Positions 6,730 through 60,386 of a stretch of DNA of 64,000 bases are shown here, piece by piece. This DNA comes from Mycobacteriales bacterium (lineage in GTDB: Bacteria; Actinomycetota; Actinomycetes; Mycobacteriales; QHCA01). How positions within the stretch are numbered: the stretch's first letter is position 1; every line of letters begins with the position of its first letter. A program made the position numbers and the translations under genes. A model generated the notes under the pieces. The model did not search any database, had not been told where the DNA came from, and was given only the letters and a program-made list of their open reading frames with translations. The stretch covers positions 55,899-119,898 of the forward strand of contig JBBRYN010000001.1 of the NCBI GenBank assembly GCA_038237645.1. Direction: 5' to 3'.

Positions 6730-10124
<3,395 letters not shown>

Positions 10125-23132: not shown

Positions 23133-23207
23133 GGGCCATCCTGACTCGAAGCGTGCACCCGAGTATCGGTCATGCCCATCCTCGGCCCGGCACTACGCTT
23201 CGGATCC

Positions 23208-33054: not shown

Positions 33055-33085
33055 CGGGTGACGATCATCGGGTGACGATCATCGG
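33044..33085. repeat. Perfect 14-bp x3 tandem repeat spanning the crtA-like stop and the GNAT start
   Basis: GTGACGATCATCGG occurs three times at 33044-33057, 33058-33071 and 33072-33085. On the coding (minus) strand each unit reads CCGATGATCGTCAC and contains an ATGA. Confidence 0.95.
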
Positions 33086-36347: not shown

Positions 36348-36782
36348 ATGTCCCGGATCCCGCCTCCGGCCCGTCAGTCTGCCCTGAGCCTGCTCTCTCA
36401 GGCCCGGCGGGCGATGGACGAAGCGATGGCGCTGGAGCGGCCGGCCGAGCGTTACTCCGCCACGCACCTCGCGGCACTGCGGGCGGCTGCGGCGGTGCTC
36501 GCCGCACGGGCCCGGCCGACGGCACCCGTGCCCCGACGGTTGTCGCGCCCGACCAGTGCCTGGACGCTGCTGTGCCGGGTTGCTCCGGAGCTCACGGAGT
36601 GGGCCGGATTCTTCGCCGCTGGCGCGGCCAAGCGTGCCGCTGCCGAGGCGGGCCTGCCCCGTTCGGTTACCGCGCGGGAGGCCGACGACCTGGTACGTGA
36701 CGCCCAAACCTTCCTTACCGTCGTCGAGACCTTGCTCGGTTTGCTGACCGAGCCGATGCTCACCACCGCAAGGCGCGGGTGA
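36348..36782 (+). CDS. HEPN-like small protein (recalled as the SAV_6107 family) with an Rx4H motif
   Basis: ATG at 36348 lies 4 nt after the DUF6504 stop. The sequence is all-helical and carries ERYSATHLAALRAAAAVLAAR (R-x4-H) and AAFFAAGAAKRAAAEAG. It sits inside track ORF 36174-36782. Confidence 0.6.
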   Translation: MSRIPPPARQSALSLLSQARRAMDEAMALERPAERYSATHLAALRAAAAVLAARARPTAPVPRRLSRPTSAWTLLCRVAPELTEWAGFFAAGAAKRAAAEAGLPRSVTAREADDLVRDAQTFLTVVETLLGLLTEPMLTTARRG

Positions 36783-39700
36783 GAAGTGCCTTGGCAGATC
36801 CATTCGTGCACTTACACGTCGCGTCGGGCTACTCGCTGCGGCACGGCGCGAGCTCACCGCGGGTCCTGGCCGAGCGGGCCGCCGAGCACGGCATGGACTC
36901 CCTGGCGCTGACCGACCGGGACGGCGTCTACGGCGCAGTGAAGTTCGTCATCGCCTGCCGGAGTGTCGGAGTGCGGCCCTTGCTCGGGGTCGATCTCGCC
37001 GTCGCACCGGGAAGCACCGCAGCACCGGGAAGCACCGCAGCACCGGGAAGCACCGCAGCACCGGGAAGCACCGCCCGGCGCACCCCCGCACGGGGCGGAG
37101 CGGAGGTTGATCCCCGATTGCCGCGGGTGACCCTGCTGGCCCAAGACGGGCGTGGGTGGGCTTCGTTGTGCCGGCTGATCAGTGCCACGCATTTGGCGGG
37201 GGAGCGAAGTCGCCCGGTCACCTCGCTCGACCTGATCGCGTCGCATGCGGCCGGGTTGTTCGTGTTGCTAGGGCCGGCCTCGGAGTTGGGTCGCGCGGTG
37301 GCCGCCCACCGCCCCGACCTGGCCCGGGCCGTCCTTGCTCGCTGGCGAGCGGTGCTCCCCGCGGAGGATCTGCTCGTCGAGATCGTCTCCCACCGAGGAC
37401 GCGGAGACACCGGGCGGGCGGCGGCACTGCTCGGGTTTGCCGCAGCGACCAGCCTGCCAGCGATGCTGACCAACGCGGTGCGCTTCGCCGATCGGGCCAA
37501 CGCGCCGATTGCGGATGTTCTCGACTCCGCCCGCCGGCTGGTCCCCCTCGGTGCCCGCTCGGTCGACCGTGTCAACGCCGAGGGCTATCTGAAGTCGGGC
37601 AAGGAGATGGCCGTGGCGGCCTACGAGGTGTGCGGCCCCGACCGCGACGCGGCTGATCGCCTGCTTGCCCGCACCAGGCACGTTGCCGATCGGTGCGCGG
37701 TCGACCCCCGCACCGATATGGGCATCGGCGAAGTGCACTTCCCCGAGCTCGGGGGAGCCGGGGCCAACGGTGCGGCGGGTGCGGCGAGGGCCGTGCTGCG
37801 GGCCAGGTGCGAGGCGGGTTTGGGTCGGCGAGTCATGGCACCCACCGCAGAAGTCCAAGAGCGGCTCGATCACGAACTCGGCATCATCGACGGGCTCGGC
37901 TATCCGTCGTACTTCCTGACCGTGGCCGACATCGCCGACCTCATTCGCTCGCTGGGCGTGCGCTGTGCTGCCCGGGGATCGGGCGCCGGCAGCCTCGTCA
38001 CCTACCTGCTGGGAATCTCCGATGTCGATCCGATCCGTTACCGGCTGCTGATGGAGCGCTTTCTGTCGCCGCTGCGCCAAGCGTTGCCCGACATCGACAT
38101 CGACGTGGAGTCGGCTCGCCGGACAGAGGTCTACGAGGCGGTGCTTGCGCGATTCGGTGCGCAGCGGTGCACGTGCGTATCGATGATGGACACCTACCGC
38201 GCCCGGCATGCGATCCGCGATGTCGGGGCGGCGCTCGGGCTGCCGCCAGGTGAGATCGACGCGGTGGCCAAGGCGTTTCCGCACATTCGGGCAAACCAGC
38301 TCCATCAGGCGTTGCACGACCTGCCCGAGCTACGGGCCAGCGGGTTGGGGGAGGCGCGCCTGTCGCTGCTGTTCACCCTGGCCGAACGGCTGGACGGGCT
38401 TCCTCGGCACATTGCCCTGCACCCCTGCGGTGTGTTGCTCTCCGATAAGACGCTGCTCGACCGCACGCCGGTCGAGGCGAGCTACCTGGGCTTCCCGATG
38501 AGCCAGTTCGACAAGGACGACGTCGAGGAACTCGGATTTCTCAAGCTCGACCTGCTCGGCATCCGGATGCAGTCGGCGATGGCCCACGCGATCGACGAGG
38601 TGCAGCGGGTCGACGGGGAGCGGATCGACATCGACGCGGTGCCGCGCGACGACCCGACGACCTTTGCGCTTGTGCGCTCCACCCGGCTGCTCGGTTGCTT
38701 CCAGATCGAGTCTCCCGGCCAGCGCGAATTGATCGGCAAGTTCGGGCCCGAGACGTTCGATGACCTCATCGTCGACATCTCGCTGTTCCGTCCCGGGCCG
38801 GTCAAGAGCGACATGGTGACACCGTTCCTCGAGGCCCGGCAGGGCTGGCGGCCGCCCAGCTACTTCCACGACGACGTACGCCCGGCGCTCGAGCAGACCT
38901 GCGGCGTGGTCGTCTTCCACGAGCAGGTGCTCGAGATCGTCGCTGTGTTGACCGGCTGCTCGCTTGCCGAGGCCGACGAGGTGCGTCGCGCGCTCGGCGA
39001 CAAGGACGGCCAGGAGGAGGTGCGGGTCTGGTTCCGCCCATTGGTGCTGGCTCGTGGCTACGACCTGGCCACCGTCGATCGGGCGTGGGAGATTCTGCGC
39101 GCCTTCGGTTCGTTCGGTTTCTGCAAGGCTCATGCGGCGGCGTTTGCCCTGCCGACCTACCAGTCGGCGTGGCTCAAGGCGCACCATCCGGCCGCATTCC
39201 TCGCCGGAGTCCTCACCCATGACCCGGGCATGTATCCCAAGCGGCTGATTCTCGACGACGCCCGGCAGTTCGGCATCGCCGTGCTCGGGCTCGACGTCAA
39301 CGTTTCCGAGTCGACCTATCGGATGGAGCGGGTAGGAGACTTCGACGAGCCGCCATCGGGGATCCCCGCCCGGCCTCCGCGGGCGAGTTCCGAGGACCCC
39401 GGCCGGTCGTCGCGGGCGAGTTCCGAGGACCCCGGCTGGCCGAACAGTCGTTGTCATGGGATCCGGTTGTCGCTGGCCGACGTCAGGGGCATCTCCGCAG
39501 CCGAGATCGCCCGGATCGTGGCCGGCCGGCCCTACCATTGCCTGGCCGACTTCTGGCACCGTGCGGCGGTGTCCCGCCCGATCGCGGAGCGACTGGTGGT
39601 GGCAGGCGGCTTCGACACCCTCTACGGCATCGGGACGTCGCTGACGGTGCGCCGACAAGGTCAGGTGACCCGGCGTGACCTGCTGTTGCAGGTCGCCGAG

Positions 39701-40624
39701 CTCGACCAGTGGTCCCGGGGCGTGCGGCGGTCTGCTCGGGCGACGGCACCGCGTCTGGCAGGCAAGGGCCGCCGCAAGGCCGGCGGCAGCGGCGAGCGGA
39801 GCGGCTCACCCACAGACGATCCGATCCGCAGCCAGGCAGCCGGTCAGTCTCAGGCCGCGGCCGTGCCGGAGCCGGTTGACGTCCAGCTGATCCTCGACCT
39901 CGGTGACGACCCGGGGCACACCAGCCTGTCCGGGCTACCTGAGATGACCGGTGCCGAGCGGGTACGCGCCGAGCTCGACGTGCTCGGCCTCGACGCGAGC
40001 CAGCACATCGTGGATTTCTACGAGCCGTTCTTCGCCGCGGTCGGAATTACCCGGTCGCGGGATCTGCTCGGCTGTCGCAGCAAGGCCGAAGTGCTGGTCG
40101 CGGGAGTCAAGGTCGCCACCCAGACGCCACCGGTCAGGTCTGGCCGGCGGGTCGTTTTCGTCACCCTCGACGACGCCACCGGGCCGGTCGACGCGACGTT
40201 CTTCGAGGATGCCCAAGTCGGCTATGCCAGCACTCTTTTTCACTGCTGGCTGCTGGTCATCCGCGGTGAGGTTCGGCGGACGGGCCGGCGCGGGGTGTCG
40301 ATCCGGGCGACCGGCTGCTGGGAACTCCCCGCGTTGCGGGACGCATGGGAGTGCGGCGGCCTGGCGGCGGTCGCCGCGGCGATGCGGGCCCCTGCCGTGC
40401 TCACCGAGGAAGCGGTCCACGGCGCCGCCGAGAGCAGATCGGGCCGCCCCGTGACGACCCGGCCGCCGGGAGCCGGCCATGACGGTCCGGCCGGCCGCGC
40501 CGTGCTGGTCTCGGCCACCGGTTTCCGGCTCTCGCCATATGCCGACATCAAGCCACCTGGTGAAGCATCCCAGGGGGCGCCGCGCAAGCTGTGGCATTCC
40601 AGCCCGGGGAGTTCCGGTGGATGA
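36779..40624 (+). CDS. dnaE2: DnaE2-like error-prone DNA polymerase (DnaE-family C polymerase)
   Basis: The N-terminus FVHLHVASGYSLRHGASSPRVLAERAAEHGMDSLALTDRDGVYGAVKF resembles mycobacterial DnaE2 (ELHAHSAYSFLDGAS...ALTDHDGLYGAVRF). Core motifs are GCFQIESPGQRE, ISLFRPGP and FGFCKAHAAAFA, and the OB fold is VFVTLDDATGPVDATFF. GTG at 36779 overlaps the upstream stop (GTGA). Confidence 0.85.
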   Translation: MRSALADPFVHLHVASGYSLRHGASSPRVLAERAAEHGMDSLALTDRDGVYGAVKFVIACRSVGVRPLLGVDLAVAPGSTAAPGSTAAPGSTAAPGSTARRTPARGGAEVDPRLPRVTLLAQDGRGWASLCRLISATHLAGERSRPVTSLDLIASHAAGLFVLLGPASELGRAVAAHRPDLARAVLARWRAVLPAEDLLVEIVSHRGRGDTGRAAALLGFAAATSLPAMLTNAVRFADRANAPIADVLDSARRLVPLGARSVDRVNAEGYLKSGKEMAVAAYEVCGPDRDAADRLLARTRHVADRCAVDPRTDMGIGEVHFPELGGAGANGAAGAARAVLRARCEAGLGRRVMAPTAEVQERLDHELGIIDGLGYPSYFLTVADIADLIRSLGVRCAARGSGAGSLVTYLLGISDVDPIRYRLLMERFLSPLRQALPDIDIDVESARRTEVYEAVLARFGAQRCTCVSMMDTYRARHAIRDVGAALGLPPGEIDAVAKAFPHIRANQLHQALHDLPELRASGLGEARLSLLFTLAERLDGLPRHIALHPCGVLLSDKTLLDRTPVEASYLGFPMSQFDKDDVEELGFLKLDLLGIRMQSAMAHAIDEVQRVDGERIDIDAVPRDDPTTFALVRSTRLLGCFQIESPGQRELIGKFGPETFDDLIVDISLFRPGPVKSDMVTPFLEARQGWRPPSYFHDDVRPALEQTCGVVVFHEQVLEIVAVLTGCSLAEADEVRRALGDKDGQEEVRVWFRPLVLARGYDLATVDRAWEILRAFGSFGFCKAHAAAFALPTYQSAWLKAHHPAAFLAGVLTHDPGMYPKRLILDDARQFGIAVLGLDVNVSESTYRMERVGDFDEPPSGIPARPPRASSEDPGRSSRASSEDPGWPNSRCHGIRLSLADVRGISAAEIARIVAGRPYHCLADFWHRAAVSRPIAERLVVAGGFDTLYGIGTSLTVRRQGQVTRRDLLLQVAELDQWSRGVRRSARATAPRLAGKGRRKAGGSGERSGSPTDDPIRSQAAGQSQAAAVPEPVDVQLILDLGDDPGHTSLSGLPEMTGAERVRAELDVLGLDASQHIVDFYEPFFAAVGITRSRDLLGCRSKAEVLVAGVKVATQTPPVRSGRRVVFVTLDDATGPVDATFFEDAQVGYASTLFHCWLLVIRGEVRRTGRRGVSIRATGCWELPALRDAWECGGLAAVAAAMRAPAVLTEEAVHGAAESRSGRPVTTRPPGAGHDGPAGRAVLVSATGFRLSPYADIKPPGEASQGAPRKLWHSSPGSSGG
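37004..37075 (+). repeat. 18-bp x4 in-frame tandem repeat inside dnaE2 (APGSTA x4)
   Basis: GCACCGGGAAGCACCGCA is repeated four times, with the last base of copy 4 being C. It encodes residues of about 76-99 in the PHP domain. Confidence 0.95.
39378..39436 (+). repeat. 33-bp-period in-frame duplication inside dnaE2 (RASSEDPG x2)
   Basis: CGCGGGCGAGTTCCGAGGACCCCGGC occurs at 39378-39403 and again at 39411-39436, separated by CGGTCGT. It encodes PRASSEDPGRSSRASSEDPGWPN. Confidence 0.9.
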
Positions 40625-47014: not shown

Positions 47015-48009
47015 TAGGACTCCCGGCGGCCGTCTGGCACGGCGACCCGCGCGATGATGTCGCGGACCACGGACGCAGGCGTCCGGTGGGCGATCTGGGC
47101 GTCGGCCGTGGGCAACAGCCGGTGGGCGAGCACGGGACCGGCGAGGTCCTGCAGGTCGTCGGGCAACACGTAGTCCCGGCCGTCGAGGGCGGCGACGGCG
47201 CGCGCGGTGCGAACCAGGTGCAGCGTGGAGCGGGGGGAGGCGCCGAGCCGGAGGTCGCTGGAGCGCCGGGTCGCGCTCACCAGCTCGATGGCATAACGGC
47301 GCAGCGCGTCGGAGATGTGCACGGCCTGGGCGGTGCGGATCAAGTGGCGCACCTCGCGGGCGTCGGAGACCGGACGAAGGTCGTCGAGGGGGTCGGTCCG
47401 GCCGTGCGCGTCGATCATCTCCAGCTCGGCGGCCGCATCGGGATAGCCCATGGCGAGGCGGGCCGTGAATCGGTCGCGCTGCGCCTCCGGCAGTGGATAG
47501 GTGCCCTCCATCTCGATGGGGTTCTGCGTGGCGATCACCATGAAGGGCGACTGCAGCTCGTAGGTGATGCCGTCGACGGTGACCTGTCGCTCCTCCATGC
47601 ACTCCAGCAGGGCAGATTGCGTCTTGGGCGACGCCCGGTTGATCTCGTCACCGACGACGAGGTTGGCAAAGACCGCGCCCGGTTTGAACTCGAAGTCGCG
47701 GGTCTCCTGGTTGTAGACCGATACGCCGGTCACGTCGCTCGGCAACAGGTCAGGGGTGAACTGGATCCGGCGAACCGAGCAGTCGATCGACCGGGCCAAG
47801 GCCTTGGCCAACTTGGTCTTGCCGACTCCGGGGACGTCTTCGATGAGCAGGTGGCCCTCGGCGAGCATCACCGCGAGGGCGAGCCGGACGGCTTCTGACT
47901 TGCCCTCGATGACGTGCTCGATGTTCGTCATGATGCGGCCCGCGACCTCGAGCAGCCCGTCGAGGGAGCCCGGGGTCTCGTCGATACCCTCCAGCGCGCG
48001 GTGCGTCAC
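47014..48009 (-). CDS. MoxR-type AAA+ ATPase
   Basis: Walker A is EDVPGVGKT and Walker B is VVGDEINRASPKTQSALLECMEE, followed by VIATQNP. GTG at 48009 has GAGGAGGAG 7 nt upstream. Confidence 0.9.
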   Translation of the reverse strand: MTHRALEGIDETPGSLDGLLEVAGRIMTNIEHVIEGKSEAVRLALAVMLAEGHLLIEDVPGVGKTKLAKALARSIDCSVRRIQFTPDLLPSDVTGVSVYNQETRDFEFKPGAVFANLVVGDEINRASPKTQSALLECMEERQVTVDGITYELQSPFMVIATQNPIEMEGTYPLPEAQRDRFTARLAMGYPDAAAELEMIDAHGRTDPLDDLRPVSDAREVRHLIRTAQAVHISDALRRYAIELVSATRRSSDLRLGASPRSTLHLVRTARAVAALDGRDYVLPDDLQDLAGPVLAHRLLPTADAQIAHRTPASVVRDIIARVAVPDGRRES

Positions 48010-48249
48010 CAAACGACTCCTCCTCGACGGCGCAGGCCCGGGCCCGACTCCCACATCGTGCCGCATCTTCGGCGGCACCGCCCCTGCTGGCCGGCAGTCG
48101 GCGATGCGCGGGCCCGGTGACGGGCAGTGTCGGCGGCCACCCGGTGGGAGCCGGGCTCTGAGCCGCGCTTGCACTCGGGTCGTGCGCCGGTCCGACCGTA
48201 CGACCGCTGGGGAGCAGCCACGCACCCAACATGGCGTATCTGCAGTTCA

Positions 48250-48285
48250 GTGGAGCAAAGTGGAGTACGGTGGCGTCCAGTGGAG
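48250..48285 (+). promoter_or_regulatory. Four direct GTGG(A/C)G boxes at exact 10-bp phasing (candidate MraZ operator)
   Basis: GTGGAG at 48250, GTGGAG at 48260, GTGGCG at 48270 and GTGGAG at 48280. The array ends 54 nt upstream of the mraZ ATG. Confidence 0.6.
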
Positions 48286-48338
48286 GAAATGATGGCCCGG
48301 CCCGGCGGCCGGCGCAGAAACGGAAGCGGGTGGAAGGG

Positions 48339-48770
48339 ATGTTTCTCGGCACCCATTCACCCCGCCTGGATGACAAGGGCCGGCTGTTCCTGCCGGCGAA
48401 GTTCCGCGACGAGCTGGCGCCTGGTGTCGTCATCACCAAGGGCCAGGAGCGTTGCCTCTACGTCTTCCCCCTCGAGGAGTTCAACCGGATTACGGAGCGG
48501 TTGCGGGAGGCACCGGTCACTGCCAAGGCTGTCCGTGACTACACAAGGGTGTTCTTCGCCAGCGCCTCGGACGAGACGCCGGACCGGCAGGGGCGGATCA
48601 CGGTGCCGACGGCGCTGCGCGGCTACGCCGGGTTGACCAAGGATTGTGTCGTCATCGGTCAGAACACCCGGCTGGAGATCTGGGACACCGCCGCCTGGCA
48701 GGCCTACGAGTCGGAGCAGGAGCAGGCGTTCTCCGACCTGTCGGAGGAGGTGCTGCCCGGAGTCCTCTGA
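48339..48770 (+). CDS. mraZ: Division/cell-wall cluster transcriptional regulator MraZ
   Basis: [26 protein letters not shown]...[18 protein letters not shown] shows two SpoVT/AbrB-like halves. It is 143 aa from ATG 48339. Confidence 0.93.
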
Positions 48771-48771
48771 C

Positions 48772-48897
48772 GGTCGAGTGAGCATCGAGCGAAGCGAGGA
48801 GCGGAGCGAGATGACAACTGGGTCGAGTGAGCATCGAGCGAAGCGAGGAGCGGAGCGAGATGACAACTGGGTCGAGTGAGCATCACCGAAGCGAGAT
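48772..48897 (+). repeat. Tandem array A of a 49-bp repeat (2 perfect copies plus a third copy with a 12-nt internal deletion)
   Basis: The unit GGTCGAGTGAGCATCGAGCGAAGCGAGGAGCGGAGCGAGATGACAACTG occurs at 48772-48820 and 48821-48869, with a degenerate copy from 48870. The array begins 1 nt after the mraZ stop. Confidence 0.95.
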
Positions 48898-48993
48898 GCG
48901 GAATCGGTCGTGCTGCGAGCTCTCGGTCCGCTCCCGCCCCTGACGCACCTTCCCCGGTGTCAGGCGCGGCAGCGGAGCGGGACCTGGCAGCAC

Positions 48994-49156
48994 GCGGAGC
49001 GAGATGACAGTTGGGTCGGGTGAGCATCGAGCGAAGCGAGGCGCGGAGCGAGATGACAGTTGGGTCGGGTGAGCATCGAGCGAAGCGAGGCGCGGAGCGA
49101 GATGACAGTTGGGGTCGGGTGAGCATCGAGCGAAGCGAGGCGCGGAGCGAGATGAC
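48994..49156 (+). repeat. Tandem array B of the same 49-bp repeat family (3 copies plus a partial fourth)
   Basis: The unit GCGGAGCGAGATGACAGTTGGGTCGGGTGAGCATCGAGCGAAGCGAGGC occurs at 48994-49042 and 49043-49091, and at 49092-49141 with one extra G. A partial copy runs to 49156. The unit differs from the array A unit at 4 of 49 positions. The array ends 20 nt before the rsmH ATG. Confidence 0.95.
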
Positions 49157-49175
49157 GATCAGTCGAAGGGTCGAG

Positions 49176-50156
49176 ATGTCACAGCAGGGCGGCGATGACG
49201 GGTTGCGTGGCAGTGGCCACGTCCCGGTCCTGGTCGATCGCGTGCTGGCGCTGCTGGGGCCGGCTCTCGACGGTCACCCGGCGGTGCTGGTCGACGCGAC
49301 GGTCGGCATGGGTGGGCACGCCGAGGCCCTGGTTTCCGCGCATCCCGAGCTCACGCTGGTCGGGCTGGACAAGGACCCCGAGGCGCTGCGTCGCTCTGCC
49401 GATCGCCTGCGGCCCTACGCCGACCGGGTCGGGCTGGTGCACGCCGCCTACGACCGTCTCCCTGCGGTGCTGGCAGACCTGGAATTGCCGGCGGTCGACG
49501 GGGTGCTCTTCGACCTCGGGGTGTCCTCCCTGCAGCTCGACGACGCCGGCCGTGGCTTCTCCTACGCCAAGGACGCGCCCCTCGACATGCGGATGGACCC
49601 CACGAACCGGCTGAGTGCCGCGGACGTCGTCAACGACTATCCGATGGACGAGCTGGTCAGGATTTTGCGGGAATACGGCGAGGAGCGGTTCGCACATCGG
49701 GTCGCCGCGGCGATCGTGCGCGAGCGCGAGCACGGCCCGCTGAACTCCAGCGTCCGGCTGGCCGAGCTCGTCCGCGAGTCGATCCCCGCCGCCACCCGGC
49801 GGACCGGTGGCCACCCTGCCAAGCGCGCCTTCCAGGCACTGCGCATCGAGGTCAACGGTGAGCTGGAGTCGCTGCGGGCAGCCTTGCCGGCCGCCATCGA
49901 GCAGCTGCGCATCGGAGGGCGGATCGTTGTGCTGTCGTATCACTCGCTGGAGGACCGGATGGTCAAGCGGGTGCTGGCCAGCGGGGCCGCGAGCCGCACG
50001 CCGCCCGGGCTGCCGGTGCTCCTTCCGGGCACCGAACCGACGCTGCGGCTGCTCACCCGCGGTGCCGAACGGCCGACCGACGAAGAGGTCGCGGCCAACC
50101 CGCGGTCGGCTTCGGCCCGCCTGCGGGGCGCCGAGCGCGTCGGAGTCGCAGCATGA
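49176..50156 (+). CDS. rsmH: 16S rRNA (cytosine1402-N4)-methyltransferase
   Basis: [48 protein letters not shown] at 49176 was chosen. The track start (TTG 49011) would translate the repeat array. Confidence 0.9.
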
Positions 50157-50687: not shown

Positions 50688-52682
50688 GTGACTCAGCGGG
50701 GCCGGCCGCCCCGGCCGGCGTCCACCCGGTCCGGGGCCAAGCCCACCCGGTCCGCAGCGAAGCCCAGCCGGTCCGCATCCAGCAGGTCGGGTGCCAAGCT
50801 CACCAAGGCCGCCGATCCCACCAGATCCGGGGCCAAGCCCACCCGGTCGGCAACCATTCGTCCGGCAGCAAAGTCCACCCGATCGGCCGGCCACCGTCGC
50901 CGGGCCCCCGCCCGGCGGTCGCCACCCGCCCGGCCGAAACAACGGCGCGGCATCCGGCTGGGCAGCCCGGCCCGGCGGCTGCAGTTCGGCCTGGTGACGG
51001 TCCTGGTGCTCTTTGCCGTGATCGGTGGCCGGCTGGTGCAACTCCAGGGCCTCGACGGCACCGCGTATGCCGCCCAGGCCGAGCGGCTGCGGCTGCGCAG
51101 CGTGGTCCTGCCGGCCCAGCGCGGCGACATCCTCGACCGGGACGGCAACATCCTGGTCCGCACGATCGAGTCCCGTACGGTCTTCGCAGATCCGACGCTG
51201 GTGGTCAACCCGGCTGGCACCGCTGCTCGGCTGGCCGGCCCCTTGGGCGCCGCCCAGCCCGCTTTGGTCGGCCAGCTGACCAAGCGGGGGCGATACGTGA
51301 TCCTCAAGCGTGGCCTGCGCCCGGAGGTGGCGAAGTCCATCACCGACCTCCACCTGCCGGGGATCGGGAGTCAGCCGGAAAACCAGCGGGAAGTCCCCGG
51401 CCACGACCTGGCCGCCAACCTGATCGGCTTCGTCGGACGCGACGGCAACGGGATGGCCGGCATCGAGAGCCGCTACGACGAGGTGCTGCGTGGCCGACCG
51501 GGCATGCACGAGTATCAGACCGCGCCGGGTGGCCAGGCGATGCCCGGTGATCTCGAGCGAACGGTGCCGGCGGTGCCGGGCCGGTCGGTGCAGCTGACCC
51601 TCGACCGGGACGTGCAGTACGTCGCCCAGCAGTCGCTGTCCGAGCGGATGCGGCAGACCGGCGCCTACACCGGTTCCGCCGTCGTCCTGGACGCCCGGAC
51701 GTTCCAGGTCGTGGCGATGGCCAGCTACCCCACCTACGACGCCGCCGATCCCGCAGCGGCACCCGCCACCGCCCTCGGCAACGCGGCAGTGTCCAACGTG
51801 GTCGAGCCCGGCTCGATCCACAAGGTCGTGACCATCGCGGGTGCGCTGCAGGCAGGAGTCATCTCGCCGGACACCGCGATGATCGTGCCACCCACCATCA
51901 CCAAGGGTGGCAAGACGTTTCGGGACACCCACATGCACGGAACTGTCCCGATCACCCTGATGGGCATCCTGGCCCAGTCGAGCAACGTGGGGACGATCGA
52001 GATCGCGGACAAGCTGGGCGCGCAGGGGGTCTACGACGCCCAGCGGCGGTTCGGGCTGGGCGCGAAGACCGGACTCGACTTCCCGGGCGAGAGCCCCGGC
52101 ATCGTGCAGCCGCCGGCGAACTGGTCCGGTCCCTCCGCCGGCGGTATCCCCATCGGCCTGGGGGTGGCGGTGACACCGCTGCAGATGGCGGTCGTCTATG
52201 CCACGATCGCCAACGACGGGTTGCGGCTCGAACCCAGCCTGGTACGCGGCTTCCGCAACGCCGACGGCACGTTCGCCCCGGCGCACCGCCCGAAGGCCAC
52301 CCGGGTGATATCACCGGCGGTCGCGGCGGTCATGCGTACCGACCTGTCGGCGATCACCAGCAAGCACGCGACCGGCAAGAAGGCCGCCATCGGCGGCTAT
52401 GTGATCGCCGGCAAGACCGGCACGGGGCAGCGGGTCGAGAACGGTCGTTACACGCAGGGCAACGTGACCTCCTTCATCGGCATGGCGCCGGCGGCTGACC
52501 CGAAATACGTGGTCGCCGTGTTCGTGCACGCCCCCAACGGCGTCGGCGGCGCAGTCTCGGCCCCGGTGTTCCGCGACCTGATGGGATATGTCCTGCGACA
52601 CTTCCGGGTGCCACCGCAGGGCCAGGCCCCGCCCGAGCTGTTCCTCGGCGCCAGGCAGCCGGCCGCCCGACCGGGTGGGTAG
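50688..52682 (+). CDS. ftsI: Division-specific class B penicillin-binding protein (FtsI/PbpB)
   Basis: TM segment LQFGLVTVLVLFAVIGG, a dimerisation domain, and the transpeptidase motifs SIHKV (SxxK), SSN and KTG (AGKTGT). GTG at 50688 lies 5 nt after the ftsL stop. Confidence 0.9.
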   Translation: MTQRGRPPRPASTRSGAKPTRSAAKPSRSASSRSGAKLTKAADPTRSGAKPTRSATIRPAAKSTRSAGHRRRAPARRSPPARPKQRRGIRLGSPARRLQFGLVTVLVLFAVIGGRLVQLQGLDGTAYAAQAERLRLRSVVLPAQRGDILDRDGNILVRTIESRTVFADPTLVVNPAGTAARLAGPLGAAQPALVGQLTKRGRYVILKRGLRPEVAKSITDLHLPGIGSQPENQREVPGHDLAANLIGFVGRDGNGMAGIESRYDEVLRGRPGMHEYQTAPGGQAMPGDLERTVPAVPGRSVQLTLDRDVQYVAQQSLSERMRQTGAYTGSAVVLDARTFQVVAMASYPTYDAADPAAAPATALGNAAVSNVVEPGSIHKVVTIAGALQAGVISPDTAMIVPPTITKGGKTFRDTHMHGTVPITLMGILAQSSNVGTIEIADKLGAQGVYDAQRRFGLGAKTGLDFPGESPGIVQPPANWSGPSAGGIPIGLGVAVTPLQMAVVYATIANDGLRLEPSLVRGFRNADGTFAPAHRPKATRVISPAVAAVMRTDLSAITSKHATGKKAAIGGYVIAGKTGTGQRVENGRYTQGNVTSFIGMAPAADPKYVVAVFVHAPNGVGGAVSAPVFRDLMGYVLRHFRVPPQGQAPPELFLGARQPAARPGG

Positions 52683-52693
52683 GCTCGCTGGCC

Positions 52694-54193
52694 GTGTCGG
52701 CAAACCCTGCGCTGCGCCCCGAGCGCGGGCCGCGTCACCGCCTGGCGGAGCTGACTTCCCGGCTCGGCCGGGCCGCTCCGACTGCCGACGTCGAGATCAC
52801 CGGCATCACCCATGCCAGCGCGGCCGTCCGGCCGGGTGACCTCTACGTCGCGCTGCCGGGAGTGCGGACCCACGGCGCACGTTTCGCCGTCGAGGCGGTC
52901 CGGTCGGGCGCCGTCGCCGTCCTCACCGATCCGGCCGGCCGGCAGCTCACCGGCGAGCTGGACGTGCCTTTTGTCGTGGTCGACGAGCCTCGTGCCCTGC
53001 TGGGCGACGTGGCGGCATGGACGTATGACGATCCGTCGTCGGCCCTGATCGTGCTGGGAGTGACCGGCACGAACGGCAAGACCACCACGGCATACCTGCT
53101 GGACGCCGGCCTGCGGGCCGCCGGCCACACCACCGGACTGGTCGGCACGATCGACACCAGGGTGGCGGGGGAGAGTGTGTCCAGTGTGCGGACGACTCCG
53201 GAGGCCACCGATCTGCAGGCGCTCTTCGCGGTGATGCGCGAGCGGGGGGTCGGTGCCGTCGCCATGGAGGTCTCGAGCCACGCCCTTGCGCTGCACCGGG
53301 TGGACGGCACGCGGTTCGCCGCCGGTCTCTTCACCAACCTCTCGCAGGACCACCTGGATTTCCACGGTGACATGTGCAGCTATTTCAGTGCCAAGGCGCG
53401 GCTCTTCGACGGCAGGTGCGCCCACGAGATCGTCAACGTCGACGATCCCTACGGGCGCCGGCTCGTCCGCCCGGCGACGGTCACGGTGTCGGCCGAGGGC
53501 GCGCCGGCGGCCTGGCGGGCGAGCGGGATCGCGAGCGACCCCACCGGCCCGTCGACCTTCGCCGTCGACGGTCCCGGCGGTGCGCACGCGGTGACGGCCG
53601 TACGCAGCCCCGGTGCCTTCAACGTGGCCAACGCACTGCTCGCGATCGCCACCCTGGTCACCATCGGCGTTTCGCTGGAGGATGCGGTGCGGGGGACGGC
53701 GGAGCTCACCGTGCCGGGCCGGATGGAGCAGGTCGATCGGGGCCAGGATTTCCTTGCCGTGGTCGACTACGCCCACACGCCGGAGGCCGTCGGCCGCGCC
53801 CTGGAGGCGCTGCGCCCGCTGACCCGGGGACGGCTGATCGTGGTGCTGGGCGGTGGCGGCGACCGTGACCGGGCCAAGCGGCCGCTGATGGGCGCGGCCG
53901 CGGCGCGGGGCGCCGACCTGGTCGTCGTCACCGACGACAATCCGCGTTCGGAGGATCCCGCCGCGATCCGGGCCGGAATCGTCGCGGGCGTTCGGCGAGT
54001 GGCCGGCATCGAGTCGCTGGACATCGGTGACCGCCGCGAGGCGATGGCTGAAGCAGTGCACCGGGCCGGACCGGGGGATACCGTGCTGGTCGCCGGCCGC
54101 GGGCACGAGCCGGGTCAGGAGATCGCCGGGGTGATGCATCCGTTCGACGACCGGTCGGTGCTCGCCGAGTTGCTCGACGAGCCGGCGCCGTGA
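52694..54193 (+). CDS. murE: UDP-N-acetylmuramoyl-L-alanyl-D-glutamate--2,6-diaminopimelate ligase
   Basis: GVTGTNGKTTTAYLL, DHLDFHG, DYAHTP and the DNPR motif (VTDDNPRSEDP), which indicates DAP specificity. Confidence 0.93.
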   Translation: MSANPALRPERGPRHRLAELTSRLGRAAPTADVEITGITHASAAVRPGDLYVALPGVRTHGARFAVEAVRSGAVAVLTDPAGRQLTGELDVPFVVVDEPRALLGDVAAWTYDDPSSALIVLGVTGTNGKTTTAYLLDAGLRAAGHTTGLVGTIDTRVAGESVSSVRTTPEATDLQALFAVMRERGVGAVAMEVSSHALALHRVDGTRFAAGLFTNLSQDHLDFHGDMCSYFSAKARLFDGRCAHEIVNVDDPYGRRLVRPATVTVSAEGAPAAWRASGIASDPTGPSTFAVDGPGGAHAVTAVRSPGAFNVANALLAIATLVTIGVSLEDAVRGTAELTVPGRMEQVDRGQDFLAVVDYAHTPEAVGRALEALRPLTRGRLIVVLGGGGDRDRAKRPLMGAAAARGADLVVVTDDNPRSEDPAAIRAGIVAGVRRVAGIESLDIGDRREAMAEAVHRAGPGDTVLVAGRGHEPGQEIAGVMHPFDDRSVLAELLDEPAP

Positions 54194-55575
54194 TCCCGCT
54201 CAGCCTGCAGGAGACGGCCACACTCACTGGTGGCCGGCTCGCCGATGCCCCGGATCCCGGTGTGCTCGTCACCGGCGGTGTGGTCTTCGACTCCCGGCAG
54301 GCGCGGCCGGGTGATCTGTTCCTGGCGCTGTCGGGTGAGCGGTCCGATGGTCACGATCATGCCGCCGCCGCCGCCGCGGCGGGCGCGGTGGCGGTGCTGG
54401 CCACCCGTCCGGTCGGGCTGCCGGCAATCGTCGTCGACGACGTGCTCGCCGCCCTGTCCGTGCTGGCGCGGGCCGTCCTCGAGCGGCTCCGCGACGTCAC
54501 CGTCGTCGGCGTCACCGGCTCCAGCGGCAAGACGTCCACAAAGGATCTCCTTGCCCAACTGCTGTCGCGGCTCGGCCCCACGGTGGCGCCGCCGAACTCC
54601 TTCAACAACGCCCTCGGTCACCCGTACACGGTCCTGCTGGCGACGCCGGAAACCCGGTACCTGGTGCTGGAGTACAGCGCCCGAGCCCTCGGCCACATCG
54701 CCGCGCTCTGTGCCGTCGCCCGGCCGCACATCGCCGTGGAGCTCAATGTGGGCACCGCGCACATCGGGGAGTTCGGCTCGGCCGAGGTCGTTGCCCTGGC
54801 CAAGGCGGAGCTGGTGACCTGCCTGGGTCCGGACAGCGTTGCCGTGCTCAACGCCGACGATGCGGCGGTGCGGGCCATGGCGCGCTCGACCACCGCGCGG
54901 ATCGTGCTCACCGGTCGCGACGCGGCGGCCGACGTGCGGGCCGAGGACGTCCGGCTGGACGAACGCGGCCGGGCCTCTTACACCCTGCACGCGGCCGGCC
55001 GCCAGGCGCCGGTGCGACTGGCGGTGTTCGGCGAACACGCCGTGGCCAACAGCCTGGCCGCAGCCGCGGTGGCGATCGAGTTGGGCCTGCCGGTGGCGGA
55101 TACGGCGGCTGCGCTCGGGCAGGCACGGGCGGTGAGCCGCTGGCGGATGGAGGTCGCCGAGCGGGCCGACGGCGTGACGGTGGTCAACGACGCCTACAAC
55201 GCCAATCCGGAGTCGATGGCCGCGGCGCTGCAGGCGCTGGCCGCGATGGGCCGTGGCCGGCGCACGTGGGCCGTGCTGGGTGACATGGCTGAGCTGGGCG
55301 ACCGGTCGACCCAGGAACACGAACTGCTCGGCCGGCTGGTCAACGACCGGGGCATCACCCGGCTCGTGGCGGTCGGTCCCCTGGCATCGGCCGTGCATGC
55401 TGGTGCCCTGCAGGCAGGACGGGAAGAAGGGATGTCCGCGCACGTGCCCGATATCGACGCGGCGTTGCGGCTGCTGCACAGCGAAGTCCGACGAGGTGAC
55501 GTGGTCCTGGTCAAGGCTTCCCGAGCGGCGGGTCTGGAGCGGATCGCGCTGGAGTTGCTGCGGGAGGAGGCGTGA
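54190..55575 (+). CDS. murF: UDP-N-acetylmuramoyl-tripeptide--D-alanyl-D-alanine ligase
   Basis: GVTGSSGKTSTKDLL, NNALGHP, DAYNANPESM. The GTG overlaps the murE stop (GTGA). Confidence 0.93.
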   Translation: MIPLSLQETATLTGGRLADAPDPGVLVTGGVVFDSRQARPGDLFLALSGERSDGHDHAAAAAAAGAVAVLATRPVGLPAIVVDDVLAALSVLARAVLERLRDVTVVGVTGSSGKTSTKDLLAQLLSRLGPTVAPPNSFNNALGHPYTVLLATPETRYLVLEYSARALGHIAALCAVARPHIAVELNVGTAHIGEFGSAEVVALAKAELVTCLGPDSVAVLNADDAAVRAMARSTTARIVLTGRDAAADVRAEDVRLDERGRASYTLHAAGRQAPVRLAVFGEHAVANSLAAAAVAIELGLPVADTAAALGQARAVSRWRMEVAERADGVTVVNDAYNANPESMAAALQALAAMGRGRRTWAVLGDMAELGDRSTQEHELLGRLVNDRGITRLVAVGPLASAVHAGALQAGREEGMSAHVPDIDAALRLLHSEVRRGDVVLVKASRAAGLERIALELLREEA

Positions 55576-56645
55576 GGTTCATCCTCGCTGCGGGATTCCT
55601 CAGCTTTCTGATCTCGATCTTCGGTACGCCGTGGGCGATCCGGCTGCTGACCCGTCGCGGGATCGGCCAGGAGATCCGGGCCGACGGCCCGACCAGTCAT
55701 CAGACGAAGCGGGGCACGCCGACCATGGGCGGGCTGGTCATCATCGCCGCCACGGTGCTGGGGTACGTGCTGTCCCACCTGGCACTGGGATTCGGCCCGA
55801 CCGCCAGCGCCGTGCTGCTGCTGGGGCTATTCGTCAGCCTGGGCGCCGTGGGTTTCGTCGACGACTACATCAAGGTGCGCAAGCGGCGCAGCCTCGGCCT
55901 CGACACCAAGGCCAAGCTGATCGCCCAACTCGTGATCGCCGTGCTCTTCGCCCTGCTGGCCCTGCAGTTCAGGGATGCCCGCGGTGTCGCGCCCGCCTCC
56001 ACCCACCTGTCCTTCGCCCGGGACATCTCGTGGCTCCCGCTGGGCGCGGTCGGCTTCGTCATCCTCGCGTACGTCATCGTCACTGCCGCGTCCAACGCCG
56101 TGAACCTCACCGACGGGCTGGATGGCCTGGCGACCGGCACGGCGGTGATGGTGTTCATCGCCTACACGCTGATCGCGTTCTGGCAGTTCCGGCACCAGTG
56201 CACGCCGCTCAATCACGAATTGCCGCCCCACTGCTACGCGATCCGCGACGGTGTCGACCTCGGCATGGTCGCCTTCTCGGCCGCCGGCGCCTGTTTCGGG
56301 TTCCTCTGGTGGAACGGCTCGCCGGCGCGCATCTTCATGGGCGACACCGGTTCGCTGTCCCTCGGTGGGCTGCTCGCCGGTCTGGCCATCCTCACCCGCA
56401 CCGAGACGCTGTTGATCGTCGTCGGCGCCCTGTTCGTGATCATCACGACGTCGGTCATCGTCCAGGTCGCGGTGTTCAAGCTGACCGGGCGCCGGGTCTT
56501 CCGGATGGCGCCGTTGCAGCACCACTTCGAGCTGGCGGGGTGGGGCGAGGTGACGATCGTGATCCGGTTCTGGATCCTCGCCGGGATCGGGGTCGCCGCG
56601 GGACTCGGCCTGTTCTACGCCGACTTCGTCACCGGTCAGCGGTGA
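55572..56645 (+). CDS. mraY: Phospho-N-acetylmuramoyl-pentapeptide transferase
   Basis: KRGTPTMGG, NAVNLTDGLDGLA, MGDTGSLSLGG, APLHHHFE-like APLQHHFELAGW. There is a GTGA overlap with murF. Confidence 0.95.
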   Translation: MRFILAAGFLSFLISIFGTPWAIRLLTRRGIGQEIRADGPTSHQTKRGTPTMGGLVIIAATVLGYVLSHLALGFGPTASAVLLLGLFVSLGAVGFVDDYIKVRKRRSLGLDTKAKLIAQLVIAVLFALLALQFRDARGVAPASTHLSFARDISWLPLGAVGFVILAYVIVTAASNAVNLTDGLDGLATGTAVMVFIAYTLIAFWQFRHQCTPLNHELPPHCYAIRDGVDLGMVAFSAAGACFGFLWWNGSPARIFMGDTGSLSLGGLLAGLAILTRTETLLIVVGALFVIITTSVIVQVAVFKLTGRRVFRMAPLQHHFELAGWGEVTIVIRFWILAGIGVAAGLGLFYADFVTGQR

Positions 56646-58012
56646 CGACCACCGACTACGCCGACCGCCCGATCCTGGTCACGGGAGCGGGGATCGCCGG
56701 GGGAGCGGTGGCCGAGGTCCTTCTGCGGCTCGGCGCCCGGGTCACCGTGGCCGACCGGATGCAATCGGCGCGCACGGAGGCCCTGCAGGCACTCGGTGCC
56801 CGGATCGCCATCGGCCTCACCGAGCTGCCGCCGGGATCCCAGCAGGTGGTGACCTCGCCCGGCTGGCGTCCCGGCCATCCGCTGTTGGTCGACGCGGCAG
56901 CACACGGCGTCGAGGTGATCGGCGACGTGGAGTTTGCCTGGCGCCTGCGGCCCCCGGCTGCCGGCGGCAAGCCCGCGCCCTGGCTGGCCATCACCGGCAC
57001 CAACGGCAAGACCACGACCGTGGAGATGCTGGCCGCCATCCTGCGCGCAGCCGGGCTGCGGGCGATCGCCGCAGGCAACGTGGGGCTGCCGTTGGTGCAG
57101 GCGGTGCTCGACCGGGAGCCCTACGACGTGCTGGCCGTCGAGCTGTCCTCGTTCGAGCTGCACTGGTGCTCGACCATCGTGCCTGCGGCGGCGGCCATCC
57201 TCAACATCGCGCCGGACCACCTGGACTGGCACGGCTCGATGGAGGGTTATGCGGCGGCCAAGCGCAGGATCCTGACACCCAGCACCTTCTACGTCCACAA
57301 CGACGACGACGGCTGGTCGGCGGAGCTGGCCGGTGGCGGCGCGGATGCCGGCTTCACGCTGCACGAACCCGGCCCCGGCCAGCTCGGTGTGGTCGACGGT
57401 GTGCTGGTCGACCAGGCGTTCGGCCACGGGGAGTTCGCCACCGTCGCCGCCCTGCAGGTCACCGGCCGGCACAACGTCGCCAACGCCCTGGCCGCCGCCG
57501 CACTGGCATTCGCCCACGGTGTGCCCGCGAGCGCGGCGTCGGCCGGCCTGGCCGCCTTCCGGGCCGGGCCGCACCGCAACACCCGCGTGGGATCGGTGGC
57601 CGGCGTCGACTACGTCGACGACAGCAAGGCGACCAACCCGCATGCGGCGGCCGCCTCGCTGGCCGCGTACGACCGGGTGGTGTGGATCGCGGGTGGTCTG
57701 CTCAAGGGAGCCGCCGTCGACGACCTGGTGGCGTGGCACGCCGGCCGGCTGGCCGGAGTCGTGCTGATGGGCGCCGACCGGGCGGCGTTCGCCCGGGCGA
57801 TGGCGCGACACGCGCCGGACGTCCCCGTGGTCGAGGTCGACAGGACCGACCATGGAGCCATGGCAGACGTCGTAGGTGCGGCAACCCGGCTCGCCCGGGT
57901 CGGCGATGTCGTGCTGCTCGCTCCGGCGGCCGCGTCGATGGACATGTTCGCCGACTACGCGGCCCGTGGCGCCGCCTTCGCCGAGGCCGTCGGCGCCCTG
58001 GAGGTGGCGTGA
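56642..58012 (+). CDS. murD: UDP-N-acetylmuramoylalanine--D-glutamate ligase
   Basis: ILVTGAGIAGGAVAEVL, ITGTNGKTTTVEML, DDSKATNPHAA. GTG at 56642 overlaps the mraY stop. The track ORF beginning at 55253 is a wrong extension. Confidence 0.93.
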   Translation: MTTTDYADRPILVTGAGIAGGAVAEVLLRLGARVTVADRMQSARTEALQALGARIAIGLTELPPGSQQVVTSPGWRPGHPLLVDAAAHGVEVIGDVEFAWRLRPPAAGGKPAPWLAITGTNGKTTTVEMLAAILRAAGLRAIAAGNVGLPLVQAVLDREPYDVLAVELSSFELHWCSTIVPAAAAILNIAPDHLDWHGSMEGYAAAKRRILTPSTFYVHNDDDGWSAELAGGGADAGFTLHEPGPGQLGVVDGVLVDQAFGHGEFATVAALQVTGRHNVANALAAAALAFAHGVPASAASAGLAAFRAGPHRNTRVGSVAGVDYVDDSKATNPHAAAASLAAYDRVVWIAGGLLKGAAVDDLVAWHAGRLAGVVLMGADRAAFARAMARHAPDVPVVEVDRTDHGAMADVVGAATRLARVGDVVLLAPAAASMDMFADYAARGAAFAEAVGALEVA

Positions 58013-59298
58013 GCGCCCCGACGGCCACCCGCCGGCCCACCGCACCGACCCGCGACCGCCGCACCGGAGACTCGGCTGCGGGCGGCCGCTGGCTCGATCG
58101 ACCGCTCGCTTCCTACTACCTGCTGCTGGGCAGCGCCGGCCTGCTTCTGCTGCTCGGCCTGGTCATGGTCCTGTCCGCGTCGAGCGTCAAGTCCTATGTC
58201 TCGACCGGCACGCCGTACGACATCTTCCGCCGGCAACTGGTGTGGGTCGCCCTGGGCCTGCCGGCGCTCTGGCTGGGGCTGCGACTGCGACTGCACACCT
58301 ATCGGATGCTGGCCTACCCGACGCTGCTGGTCTCCGTCATCCTGATGGTGCTGGTCCTGGTCCCCGGAGTCGGCGTGTCCGTCCCCGGCTCGACCCGGTG
58401 GCTCGACCTCGGCCCGTTGTGGTTGCAGCCATCGGAGCTGGCCAAGCTGGGTCTGGTCCTCTGGGGAGCTGACCTGCTGGTGCGCAAGCGGTCATTGCTC
58501 ACCCAGTGGAAGCACCTGATGATCCCGCTGCTCCCGGTCGCGACGCTGGACTTCGTCCTGGTGATGCTCGAGCCCGACCTCGGCACCACGTTGTGCATGA
58601 TCCTGGTGGTGCTGTCGTTGTTGTTCTTCGTCGGTGCCCCGCTGCGGATGTTCGGCCTGCTGTGCTCGGCCGTGGTGGGGCTCGTCGTCGTCGTCATCGT
58701 CGTCGAGCCCTACCGGATGGCCCGGGTGACCTCCTTCCTGCACCCCTTCGACGACCCGCAGCACACCGGCTTCCAGGCGGTGCAGGGCATCTACTCCCTG
58801 TCCTCAGGCGGCTGGTGGGGGGTCGGCCTGGGTGGGAGCAGCGGCAAGTGGAACGTGCCCAATGCCTACACCGACTACATCTTCGCGATCATCGGCGAGG
58901 AGCTCGGGCTGATGGGCGCGCTGCTCGTGCTCGTGCTCTTCGGGGTGTTCGCCTACGCCGGGCTGCGAATCGCCCGTCGCAGCACCGACCAGTTCGCCCG
59001 GCTGGTCGCCGGATCGGTGACTGCGTGGCTCACCGGGCAGGCGATCATCAACGTCGGGTACGTCGTGGGCCTGCTGCCGGTGACCGGCATCCCGCTGCCG
59101 CTCATCTCCTTCGGCGGCACTTCGCTGGTGTTGACGATGTTCGTGGTCGGGATGCTCGCCTCGTTCGCCCGGGCCGAGCCGCAGGCGGCGGCCGCCATTG
59201 CCGAACGCGGCCCGACCCGGTGGTCGCGGCTGTTGCGGCTGCCCGCGCCGGAGGTTGCCCTGCGCCGCGTGCCCTCGCCCCGGCGCGCGCGCCGGTGA
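58009..59298 (+). CDS. ftsW: Lipid II flippase / SEDS peptidoglycan polymerase FtsW
   Basis: 10-TM protein with [22 protein letters not shown] and [12 protein letters not shown] at 58009 overlaps the murD stop. Confidence 0.92.
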
Positions 59299-60386
59299 GC
59301 CCGCTGCGCTCCGTCGTGGTGGCTGGCGGCGGGTCGGCCGGCGACATCGAGCCGGCTCTGGCCCTCGCCGACGCCCTGCGGCGCAGCGACCCCGAGATAC
59401 GCATCACCGCACTCGGGACGAGGCGGGGGCTCGAGACGCGGCTGGTGCCGGCGCGCGGATATGACCTGCGGCTGGTGCCGGCGGTGCCCCTGCCGCGCCG
59501 GCCCACGCCGGCCCTGTTGCGGCTGCCGGACCGGGTGGCGGCCGCGGTCCAGGCGGTCCGGGCGGTGCTGGACGAGGTGGCCGCCGACGTCGTGGTGGGC
59601 TTCGGTGGCTACGTCGCCCTGCCGGCCTACCTGGCGGCGCGCCGCCGGCGGACCCCGATCGTTGTCAACGAGATCAACCGGCGACCCGGGCTGGCCAACC
59701 GCATCGGCGCCCGCCTCACCCGGTTCGTCGGTCTCGGCACGGAGTCGATCCCGCTGCCGCACGGCCGGGTCGTCGGCGTTCCGCTGCGCGCGGCACTCGC
59801 CGGCCTCGACCGTGCGGCTGCCAGGGATGCGGCCCGAGCGCACTTCGGCCTGGCCCTTGACGTCCCGTGCCTGCTCGTCAGCGGAGGGTCGCAAGGGGCG
59901 CGGTCGCTCAACCGGGCCGCCACTGCCGCGGCGGCGGACCTCGCGCGCGCCGACGTGCAGGTGCTGCACGTCACCGGGCCGAAGAACACCGTAGAGGTGC
60001 CCACCACCGGCGGGCAGCCGCCGTACGTCGTCGTGCCCTATGTCGACCGGATGGAGCTGGCCTATGCCGCGGCTGACCTGGCGCTGTGCCGGGCGGGTGC
60101 GATGACGGTCGCCGAGCTGACCGCGGTGGGCCTGCCCGGCGCCTACGTACCCCTGCCGCACGGCAACGGCGAGCAGCGGCTCAACGCGCTGCCGGTCGTC
60201 GCGGCGGGCGGCGGCCTGCTGGTCGACAACGCCGACCTCGACCCGGTCTGGATCCGTGACAGGCTGCTGCCCGTGCTGACCGATCCAGCCGAGCTGTCCC
60301 GGATGAGCACTGCTGCCGCCGGGGTGGGCCGGCGCGACGGGGATGTGGCGCTGGCCGAGCTCGTCCGCGAAGCGGCCGGCCCATGA
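59295..60386 (+). CDS. murG: UDP-N-acetylglucosamine--N-acetylmuramyl-(pentapeptide) pyrophosphoryl-undecaprenol N-acetylglucosamine transferase
   Basis: [45 protein letters not shown] at 59295 overlaps the ftsW stop. Confidence 0.92.

Follow-up and report, generated by a model that had tools for sequence, protein, structure and literature searches.

What are two tandem arrays of a 49-nt repeat doing between mraZ and rsmH, inside a dcw cell-division operon? The locus in question belongs to Mycobacteriales bacterium (GTDB QHCA01; assembly GCA_038237645.1), from which we analysed a stretch of 64,000 nt of contig JBBRYN010000001.1 (positions 55,899–119,898 of the forward strand; hereafter the window, whose first letter is position 1). 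Here we observed that the arrays bracket a known RNA motif, and that their unit belongs to a family which is separate from the mycobacterial interspersed repetitive units (MIRU) and obeys looser rules. Judging from the sequences, the arrays are probably copies of a MIRU-like interspersed minisatellite family present in several Actinomycetes lineages, and are most likely a selfish or near-neutral passenger.

The arrays and the hairpin between them

The spacer between mraZ and rsmH measures 405 nt and holds three features:

48772..48902, plus strand: array A, the family's GAGGAGCGG variant, with units at 48772-48820 and 48821-48869 and a degenerate third at 48870-~48902 (nhmmer, TRF)
48902..49005, plus strand: mraW RNA motif, Rfam RF01746 (cmscan 61 bits against a gathering score of 50, E 1.3e-12, full length 1-107)
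48994..49156, plus strand: array B, the family's GAGGCGCGG variant, 49 + 49 + 50 nt and a 15-nt partial unit (TRF)

The two full units of array A are identical, 49 nt long, and each is recovered by nhmmer at E ~3e-16; the first 15 nt of the third copy are intact and its remainder is degenerate, for ~2.6 copies overall as assembled. A sequence-only reading that preceded this work had laid out the units and coordinates of both arrays correctly, as TRF and the sequence bear out, and had described a 12-nt deletion in the third A unit; that deletion is one of two possible alignments, with nhmmer pairing 48870-48902 with unit positions 1-34. TRF places array B at 48993-49156 with a period of 49, 3.3 copies and 99% matches, again as assembled, and its third unit reaches 50 nt because of an extra G near 49112. 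At either end of array B stands GGAGCGAGATGAC, which resembles the ancestral rsmH leader as seen in relatives.

Direct comparison agrees with the earlier description of the units, those of A and B lying in direct orientation and differing at four of 49 positions. The smaller elements it had listed are all present as well, namely a 12-nt sub-repeat (in the A units, TRF rows 48787-48810 and 48836-48859), GGAG...ATG, GAGTGA and a mini-open reading frame (mini-ORF) at 48811-48879. Each unit carries GTGA at positions 7-10 and ATGA at positions 40-43, with GGAG upstream of the ATG. The arrays are without any TA dinucleotide and therefore no TANNNT -10 box is possible in the units; a consensus scan of 47900-49400 found neither promoter nor terminator. 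Visual inspection of the A unit of the window showed no stops in its antisense frames, and a search with the frame-0 repeat peptide returned a single weak match. The units stand head to tail without spacers, so that, as the sequence-only reading had stated, this is no CRISPR array. A 20-mer of the unit occurs five times in the window (0.01 expected), and neither the unit hidden Markov model (HMM) nor the family HMM found further copies in the 64 kb.

What had been taken for a unique core of ~96 nt between the arrays is the mraW RNA motif (48902-49005, 61 bits). Its hairpin has arms at 48909-48944 and 48959-48994, 36 nt long and 83% complementary, and a loop GCACCUUCCCCGGU (CUUCCCC); it is retained in minimum free energy and centroid folds, including the predicted fold of the whole spacer. 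Its placement, upstream of mraW (rsmH) in an actinobacterium, agrees with the definition of RF01746. The motif occurs at the orthologous position above the Rfam threshold in three of the retrieved loci (these carry L numbers; here L003, L005 and L008), and in L001 the hairpin is present by sequence, below the threshold. The window differs in that arrays lie on both sides of the motif, leaving ~130 nt between it and the mraZ stop and ~180 nt between it and the rsmH start; such bracketing was found in none of the examined relatives. According to a table in PMC3890552, the mapped 5' untranslated region of Corynebacterium glutamicum mraW begins only 16 nt before the motif's 3' end. By analogy, a transcript from a start of that type would include array B here, and little of the hairpin.

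A dispersed repeat family

The sequence-only reading had asked whether the unit is dispersed or specific to this locus. It is dispersed, with copies spread over related soil actinobacteria. We scanned a species-representative genome collection and metagenome contigs for exact matches to the 20-mer GAGCATCGAGCGAAGCGAGG. The genome collection yielded 34 stretches, including 13 contigs of the metagenome-assembled genome (MAG) Mycobacteriales bacterium Co_metawrap_279 (JBBQNN01), six loci of a Jatrophihabitantaceae MAG (CAXSBR01), three contigs of a MAG labelled Pseudonocardiales and one locus in Micromonospora sp. CA-263727. The metagenome contigs yielded 87, most of them from a single sample and many at contig ends; dozens of contigs belong to sample Ga0136617. 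About eight of the matches are due to chance and show no extended similarity (L011, L013, L015, L021, L035, L039, L053 and similar). With the unit HMM, nhmmer found 143 arrays, and the core of the family recurs, in 1-4 copies, at over 100 loci of related MAGs and metagenome contigs. The 20-mer was absent from viral contigs and the unit from phage and plasmid collections; in open-access papers we found neither the unit sequence nor such a family outside Mycobacterium.

Aligned across these loci, the unit has a core of ~39 nt, CGAGTGAGCATCGAGCGAAGCGAGG[C/A]GCGGAGCGAG[A/T]TG, and behind it a short linker whose sequence largely depends on the locus. Of 86 intervals, 63 have a period of 48 nt, with 45, 47, 49, 50 and ~75 nt also seen, and the arrays internal to contigs have one copy (n = 69), two (n = 25) or three (n = 12). 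Conservation is 85% or more at positions 4-39, and 92% or more if the polymorphic sites 21 and 29 are set aside; the ATG at 40-42 is less conserved (68-88%), and the last 7-10 nt are locus-specific.

The genomic contexts of the arrays, which rest on our own heuristic frame calls from GC content at third codon positions (GC3), are mostly intergenic. Between co-directional genes 22 arrays are sense and eight antisense, and nine and seven lie in convergent and divergent contexts, respectively. Of 47 cases with a same-strand gene upstream, 10 have the unit's own TGA as the stop of that gene, and in ~16 others the stop is at most ~5 nt away from the unit; opposite-strand genes downstream likewise have their stop codon adjoining the array. 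The tetranucleotide CTAG, rare in these genomes, stands at the left border of 18 arrays and at the right border of 16, out of 109 in each case, against ~0.5% expected (~30-fold enrichment), and could represent a target preference or a built-in two-way stop codon.

Copy number varies between samples at other loci of the family, as distinct from the mraZ-rsmH locus: three units in L121 against two in L079, three in L087 against one in L071, and two in L093 against one in L066. The flanks in these three pairs are 93-99% identical, and in the one pair that was aligned the difference is exactly one 48-nt unit.

Heuristic calls placed 13 arrays inside genes, at least six of which reflect read-through of stop-free repeat frames. 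Three insertions are genuine and in frame, with NCBIfam matches on both sides:

L091 1912-1958, antisense frame: insertion in isoleucyl-tRNA synthetase (IleRS)
L051 2069-2140 (same as L056), in frame: insertion in GlpD
L087 7062-7195 (same locus as L071), in frame: insertion in MshD, with three copies in one sample and one in the other

A further recurrent site lies directly after the stop of fusA (EF-G), where the core occurs in Micromonospora sp. CA-263727, a metagenome contig and a MAG labelled Acidimicrobiales (L037 5232-5266, L109 2163-2262, L036 6167-6202), possibly as an old copy. The repeat unit of L037 and L109 contains a duplicated piece of the fusA end, and the linker is therefore made from local sequence. 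In L023, L082 and L098 the downstream gene seems to have its true start at the ATG of the unit.

Comparison with MIRU and other repeats

The sequence-only reading had matched the arrays to MIRU, and in life-style the likeness is considerable. MIRU are tandem repeats of 40-100 nt at many loci, mostly intergenic and often in operons, according to what PMC12548453 relays of Supply et al. (1997). The family shares these traits, its dispersal over many loci being seen in relatives; the window arrays consist of direct 49-nt units in 2.6 and 3.3 copies. It also shares purine-rich units with ATGA-type stop-start overlaps and a Shine-Dalgarno (SD)-like GGAG, and copy number that differs between strains or populations, so that at other loci the family behaves as a variable number of tandem repeats (VNTR). 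As a reference we used the senX3-regX3 locus of M. tuberculosis, where 77-nt units in 3.1 copies overlap exactly, through ATGA, with senX3, with one another and with regX3, together with the 53-nt MIRU292 of M. avium (PMC7977185). A last shared trait is the misleading of gene callers into extending the downstream gene into the repeats. Several M. tuberculosis RegX3 calls are 245-277 aa long instead of 227 (L131 1355-1593) because the caller read upstream into the MIRUs, and the window ORF 49011..50156 is an artefact of this kind.

Thus the tandem arrangement, the size, the sense orientation within an operon and the stop, SD-like and start signals of the proposed match hold, whereas there is no significant sequence similarity and the rules of orientation, ORF structure and location are looser. 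The family's host is not Mycobacterium. Its HMM found nothing better than E ~3 in the M. tuberculosis MIRU locus and M. avium MIRU292, through the 11-mer GAGCGNAGCGA only, and when sequences were aligned globally with ATGAC as the anchor, 10-56% of composition-matched shuffles scored as high as the real pair or higher; homology to MIRU is therefore not demonstrable. A first impression of similarity, gained from GAGCGNAGCGA and ATGAC, the only sequence the two have in common, was lost under these shuffling controls. The orientation of the family is biased (22:8) rather than fixed, the window arrays being sense; its period is usually 48 nt, which keeps the frame and gives no unit-length ORFs; and copies also reside in frame inside protein-coding genes. 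In the window, too, each ORF spans two units instead of one, the mraZ stop lies 8 nt before the first GTG, and the last ORF reads into rsmH instead of overlapping its start.

Other short repeats offer partial parallels. Rickettsia palindromic elements are short non-autonomous repeats that lie in frame inside genes without destroying them, and the family shares with them its in-frame residence in essential genes (IleRS, GlpD, MshD); its units differ in being tandem, not palindromic, and mostly intergenic. REP/BIME, ERIC and MITE-type repeats are, like the family, dispersed, intergenic, non-coding and lineage-specific. Unlike them, the family forms head-to-tail arrays and has neither terminal inverted repeats nor a stable stem-loop: the list of inverted repeats contains no terminal inverted repeat within the unit, and the CTAG borders on a subset of arrays are the only feature resembling a target-site duplication.

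Origin and effect at the mraZ-rsmH site

The genes on either side and the leader of rsmH are as follows:

48339..48770, plus strand: mraZ, 143 aa, stop TGA 48768-48770 (ORF call, length equal to that of relatives)
49157..49175, plus strand: ancestral rsmH leader and ribosome-binding region GATCAGTCGAAGGGTCGAG, with GAAGGGTCGAGATG kept in the array-free L001, L003 and L008
49176..50156, plus strand: rsmH (mraW), 16S rRNA m4C1402 methyltransferase, 326 aa, start ATG 49176

At the DNA level the window mraZ and its L001 counterpart share 87% identity, and the L001 product contains PF02381. The rsmH product (PF01795) is 100% identical to a database protein of 326 aa (P0001), and its homologues share the start position. 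About 55 nt upstream of the mraZ start lie four GTGGAG-type boxes (AGTGGAG, AGTGGAG, GGTGGCG, AGTGGAG; 48244-48285, 10-nt spacing), which we take to resemble the MraZ operator of other bacteria.

RsmH homologues with 75-82% identity led us to orthologous loci. The gene order DUF58, MoxR-type ATPase, mraZ, rsmH, small ORF, penicillin-binding protein and murE is common to them, and their mraZ-rsmH spacers are 101-207 nt long, with the hairpin present and the 49-nt arrays absent. The comparison also corrects the downstream border of array B, which had been read as ending in GGGTCGAGATG: this sequence is found 9-19 nt beyond the end of the array and is kept in the array-free L001, L003 and L008. 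Because it is conserved in these relatives, GAAGGGTCGAGATG before rsmH is the ancestral ribosome-binding region and not the end of array B. Array A begins directly after the mraZ TGAC, which mimics the unit end ...ATGAC and is found in array-free L001 as well, and the site equivalent to GGAGCGAGATGAC reads GGAGCGAGACGAC in L001 and AGCGAGATCA in L003. In L001, the closest relative, a different, G-rich repeat (GGGGGCGGGTGGCGGGC-like, 2920-2965) fills the gap between hairpin and rsmH. Elsewhere in a dcw cluster, that of the relative L127 (73% identical to window 52808-60092), a three-unit array of the family at 7519-7658 lies in the ftsI-murE spacer, antisense to the genes, and the window is empty at the orthologous site (~52683-52800).

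These comparisons suggest how the spacer may have come about. New sites would be seeded beside stop codons at short homologies, here the TGAC of mraZ and the GGAGCGAGATGAC strings around array B, and the element would thus have settled on both sides of the conserved mraW hairpin, stretching the spacer to 405 nt. Position 29 has two common variants in the family (A or C), of which arrays A and B carry one each, and this favours two seeding events over a local copy. Once in place, arrays presumably grow and shrink by slippage or unequal recombination, since copy number differs between samples at other loci. They may be tolerated as translation-compatible cassettes: every TGA is overlapped by GTG or ATG and GGAG stands upstream of the ATG, so that ribosomes leaving mraZ could terminate and restart through the arrays, and initiation at rsmH would not obviously be blocked. 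Side effects on dcw expression would then be modest and dependent on copy number, and such an effect on rsmH and the rest of dcw is possible from what the sequence offers.

Several points weigh against a recent, passive insertion of this kind. Dispersal is seen in relatives rather than in this genome, as the 64 kb read holds no other copy, and the gene contexts come from heuristic calls. Conservation of the core across orders could reflect function instead of recent spread. The A-type units fold somewhat better than shuffles (z -2.7; L040 z -3.7), which leaves some room for a structural role of these units. Finally, the leader of L001 contains, after its G-rich repeat, GGAGCGAGACGACAACCGGAAGGGTCGAG, a 30-nt stretch that matches the family's unit junction (nhmmer E 0.8). 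It could be the relic of an older array or a pre-existing homology, two readings that an E of 0.8 does not separate, and on this sequence the spacer site may be old, or even the family's source.

The alternative that survives best is an adaptive one, a translational relay or frame switch on the model proposed for MIRU, in which the arrays would couple mraZ to rsmH by 4-nt stop-start overlaps and in which, the 49-nt period not being a multiple of three, gain or loss of a unit would alter ribosome passage in the hairpin and tune dcw expression. We regard this as unlikely, while noting that the sequence permits translation to be relayed through the arrays. The feature on which it rests is:

48778..49122, plus strand: predicted chain of overlapping mini-ORFs (script on sequence)

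Its links are GTG48778-TGA48879, GTG48876-TGA49007 (across the hairpin), ATG49004-TGA49072 and GTG49069-TGA49122, with an exit through GTG49119, which is in frame with rsmH. The chain of GTGA/ATGA overlaps thus begins 8 nt after the mraZ stop and runs unbroken into the rsmH frame. In simulation, adding or removing one unit of array A ends it at TGA 48941, in the 5' arm of the hairpin; the same change in array B keeps it, and without the extra G the chain runs past the rsmH start out of frame. Copy number in the family does vary, termination-reinitiation between flanking genes has been proposed for MIRU (review PMC12548453), and MIRU copy number is reported to alter the activity of neighbouring promoters (PMC4128351). 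For MIRU mobility and translational coupling that review (2025) has the 1997 paper as its single source, and it words the two as likely rather than shown. The chain itself is largely automatic for a 49-nt unit, because every unit TGA is preceded by G or A; non-trivial are only the open frame through the hairpin (2/3) and the exit frame (1/3), ~0.2 by chance, so that by our estimate ~1 in 5 random arrangements would yield it. In the usual 48-nt form all TGAs fall in one sense frame and the other two sense frames are open; the period thus gives an open frame and no relay of unit-length mini-ORFs. Across the family, moreover, the ATG of the unit and the downstream gene agree in frame at about the rate expected by chance, eight of the 30 arrays between co-directional genes are antisense, and in the window the first GTG lacks a well-placed SD.

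A bolder version sees in the unit a mobile 'stop-SD-start' cassette that crosses actinomycete orders, and in the arrays a copy-number-dependent switch of dcw expression. Insertion at stop codons would be guided by homology, gain and loss of units would set whether ribosomes cross the hairpin or stop in it, and recombination between the direct arrays A and B could delete the hairpin entirely. We hold this to be a rather long shot; if true, it would mean heritable, reversible variation in the expression of the dcw cell-division operon.

Less probable still is a structured or protein-bound regulatory RNA or DNA, with the units as decoys or alternative partners of the mraW hairpin, or as a binding array. 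The GGAGCGGAGCGAGA of the A units is 93% complementary to the hairpin 5' arm at 48921-48934 (inverted repeats I3 and I4), which, with the folding of the A-type units and the conservation of the core across lineages, speaks for such a role. Yet the normal hairpin wins the predicted fold despite this complementarity, the whole spacer folds no better than shuffles (z -0.86) and neither do the B units (z -0.73). The predicted folds of the unit consist of 2-bp GC stems only, typical of GAGCGR periodicity, and Rfam holds no family matching the arrays, even at E<=10. The core also occurs in many unrelated contexts, in both orientations and inside genes.

We give very little credence to a coding role for part of array B, as an N-terminal extension of RsmH from GTG49119, ATG49152 or ATG49053. 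These codons are in frame with rsmH without an intervening stop (ORF 49011..50156), family units are tolerated in frame inside real proteins, and the unit ATG does seem to serve as a start in the three loci noted above; against this, homologues begin where ATG 49176 lies, just after the conserved ribosome-binding region GAAGGGTCGAG, the identical database protein has 326 aa, and the extension is absent from all relatives. That the arrays arose by tandem duplication of the rsmH leader at this locus alone, or are an artefact of assembly, with no relation to any family, is scarcely credible, even if the unit junction resembles the ancestral leader in L001, short-read assemblies often misjudge repeat copy number and many family arrays lie at contig ends, given the recurrence of the ~39-nt core in several assemblies and samples, over more than 100 independent contigs, the intact mraZ-hairpin-rsmH synteny and the anchoring of both arrays in unique sequence on both sides.

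The window contains other small tandem repeats. Downstream in the same cluster, a 21-nt repeat (50722-50781, 2.9 copies) lies in the proline/alanine-rich N-terminal part of an FtsI-like penicillin-binding protein. A perfect 14-nt tandem repeat, GTGACGATCATCGG (33044-33086, 3.1 copies), sits at the junction of two minus-strand ORFs; its coding strand, CCGATGATCGTCAC, gives a repeated ATGA stop-start overlap and thus another small gene-junction repeat. One long plus-strand ORF (~36701-40624) holds a perfect 18-nt repeat (x3.9, 37004-37074) and a 33-nt repeat (x2.4, 39364-39442), both probably coding repeats, and a perfect 24-nt repeat, TCCGTGGCGGAGCCACCAATGACA (22510-22564, 2.3 copies), lies within or adjoining the minus-strand ORF 22011-23192.

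At this locus the arrays indicate that the mraW RNA motif tolerates displacement far from both of its neighbouring genes. In practice, arrays of this kind break short-read assemblies and make gene callers extend ORFs. More broadly, the spread and role of MIRU are still unsettled, and the family looks like an independent one with the same life-style, abundant in several uncultured lineages. With its copy-number alleles, its occupied and empty orthologous spacers, its two orientations and its in-frame insertions in essential genes, it offers material on how such elements insert, how they are tolerated and whether they relay translation.

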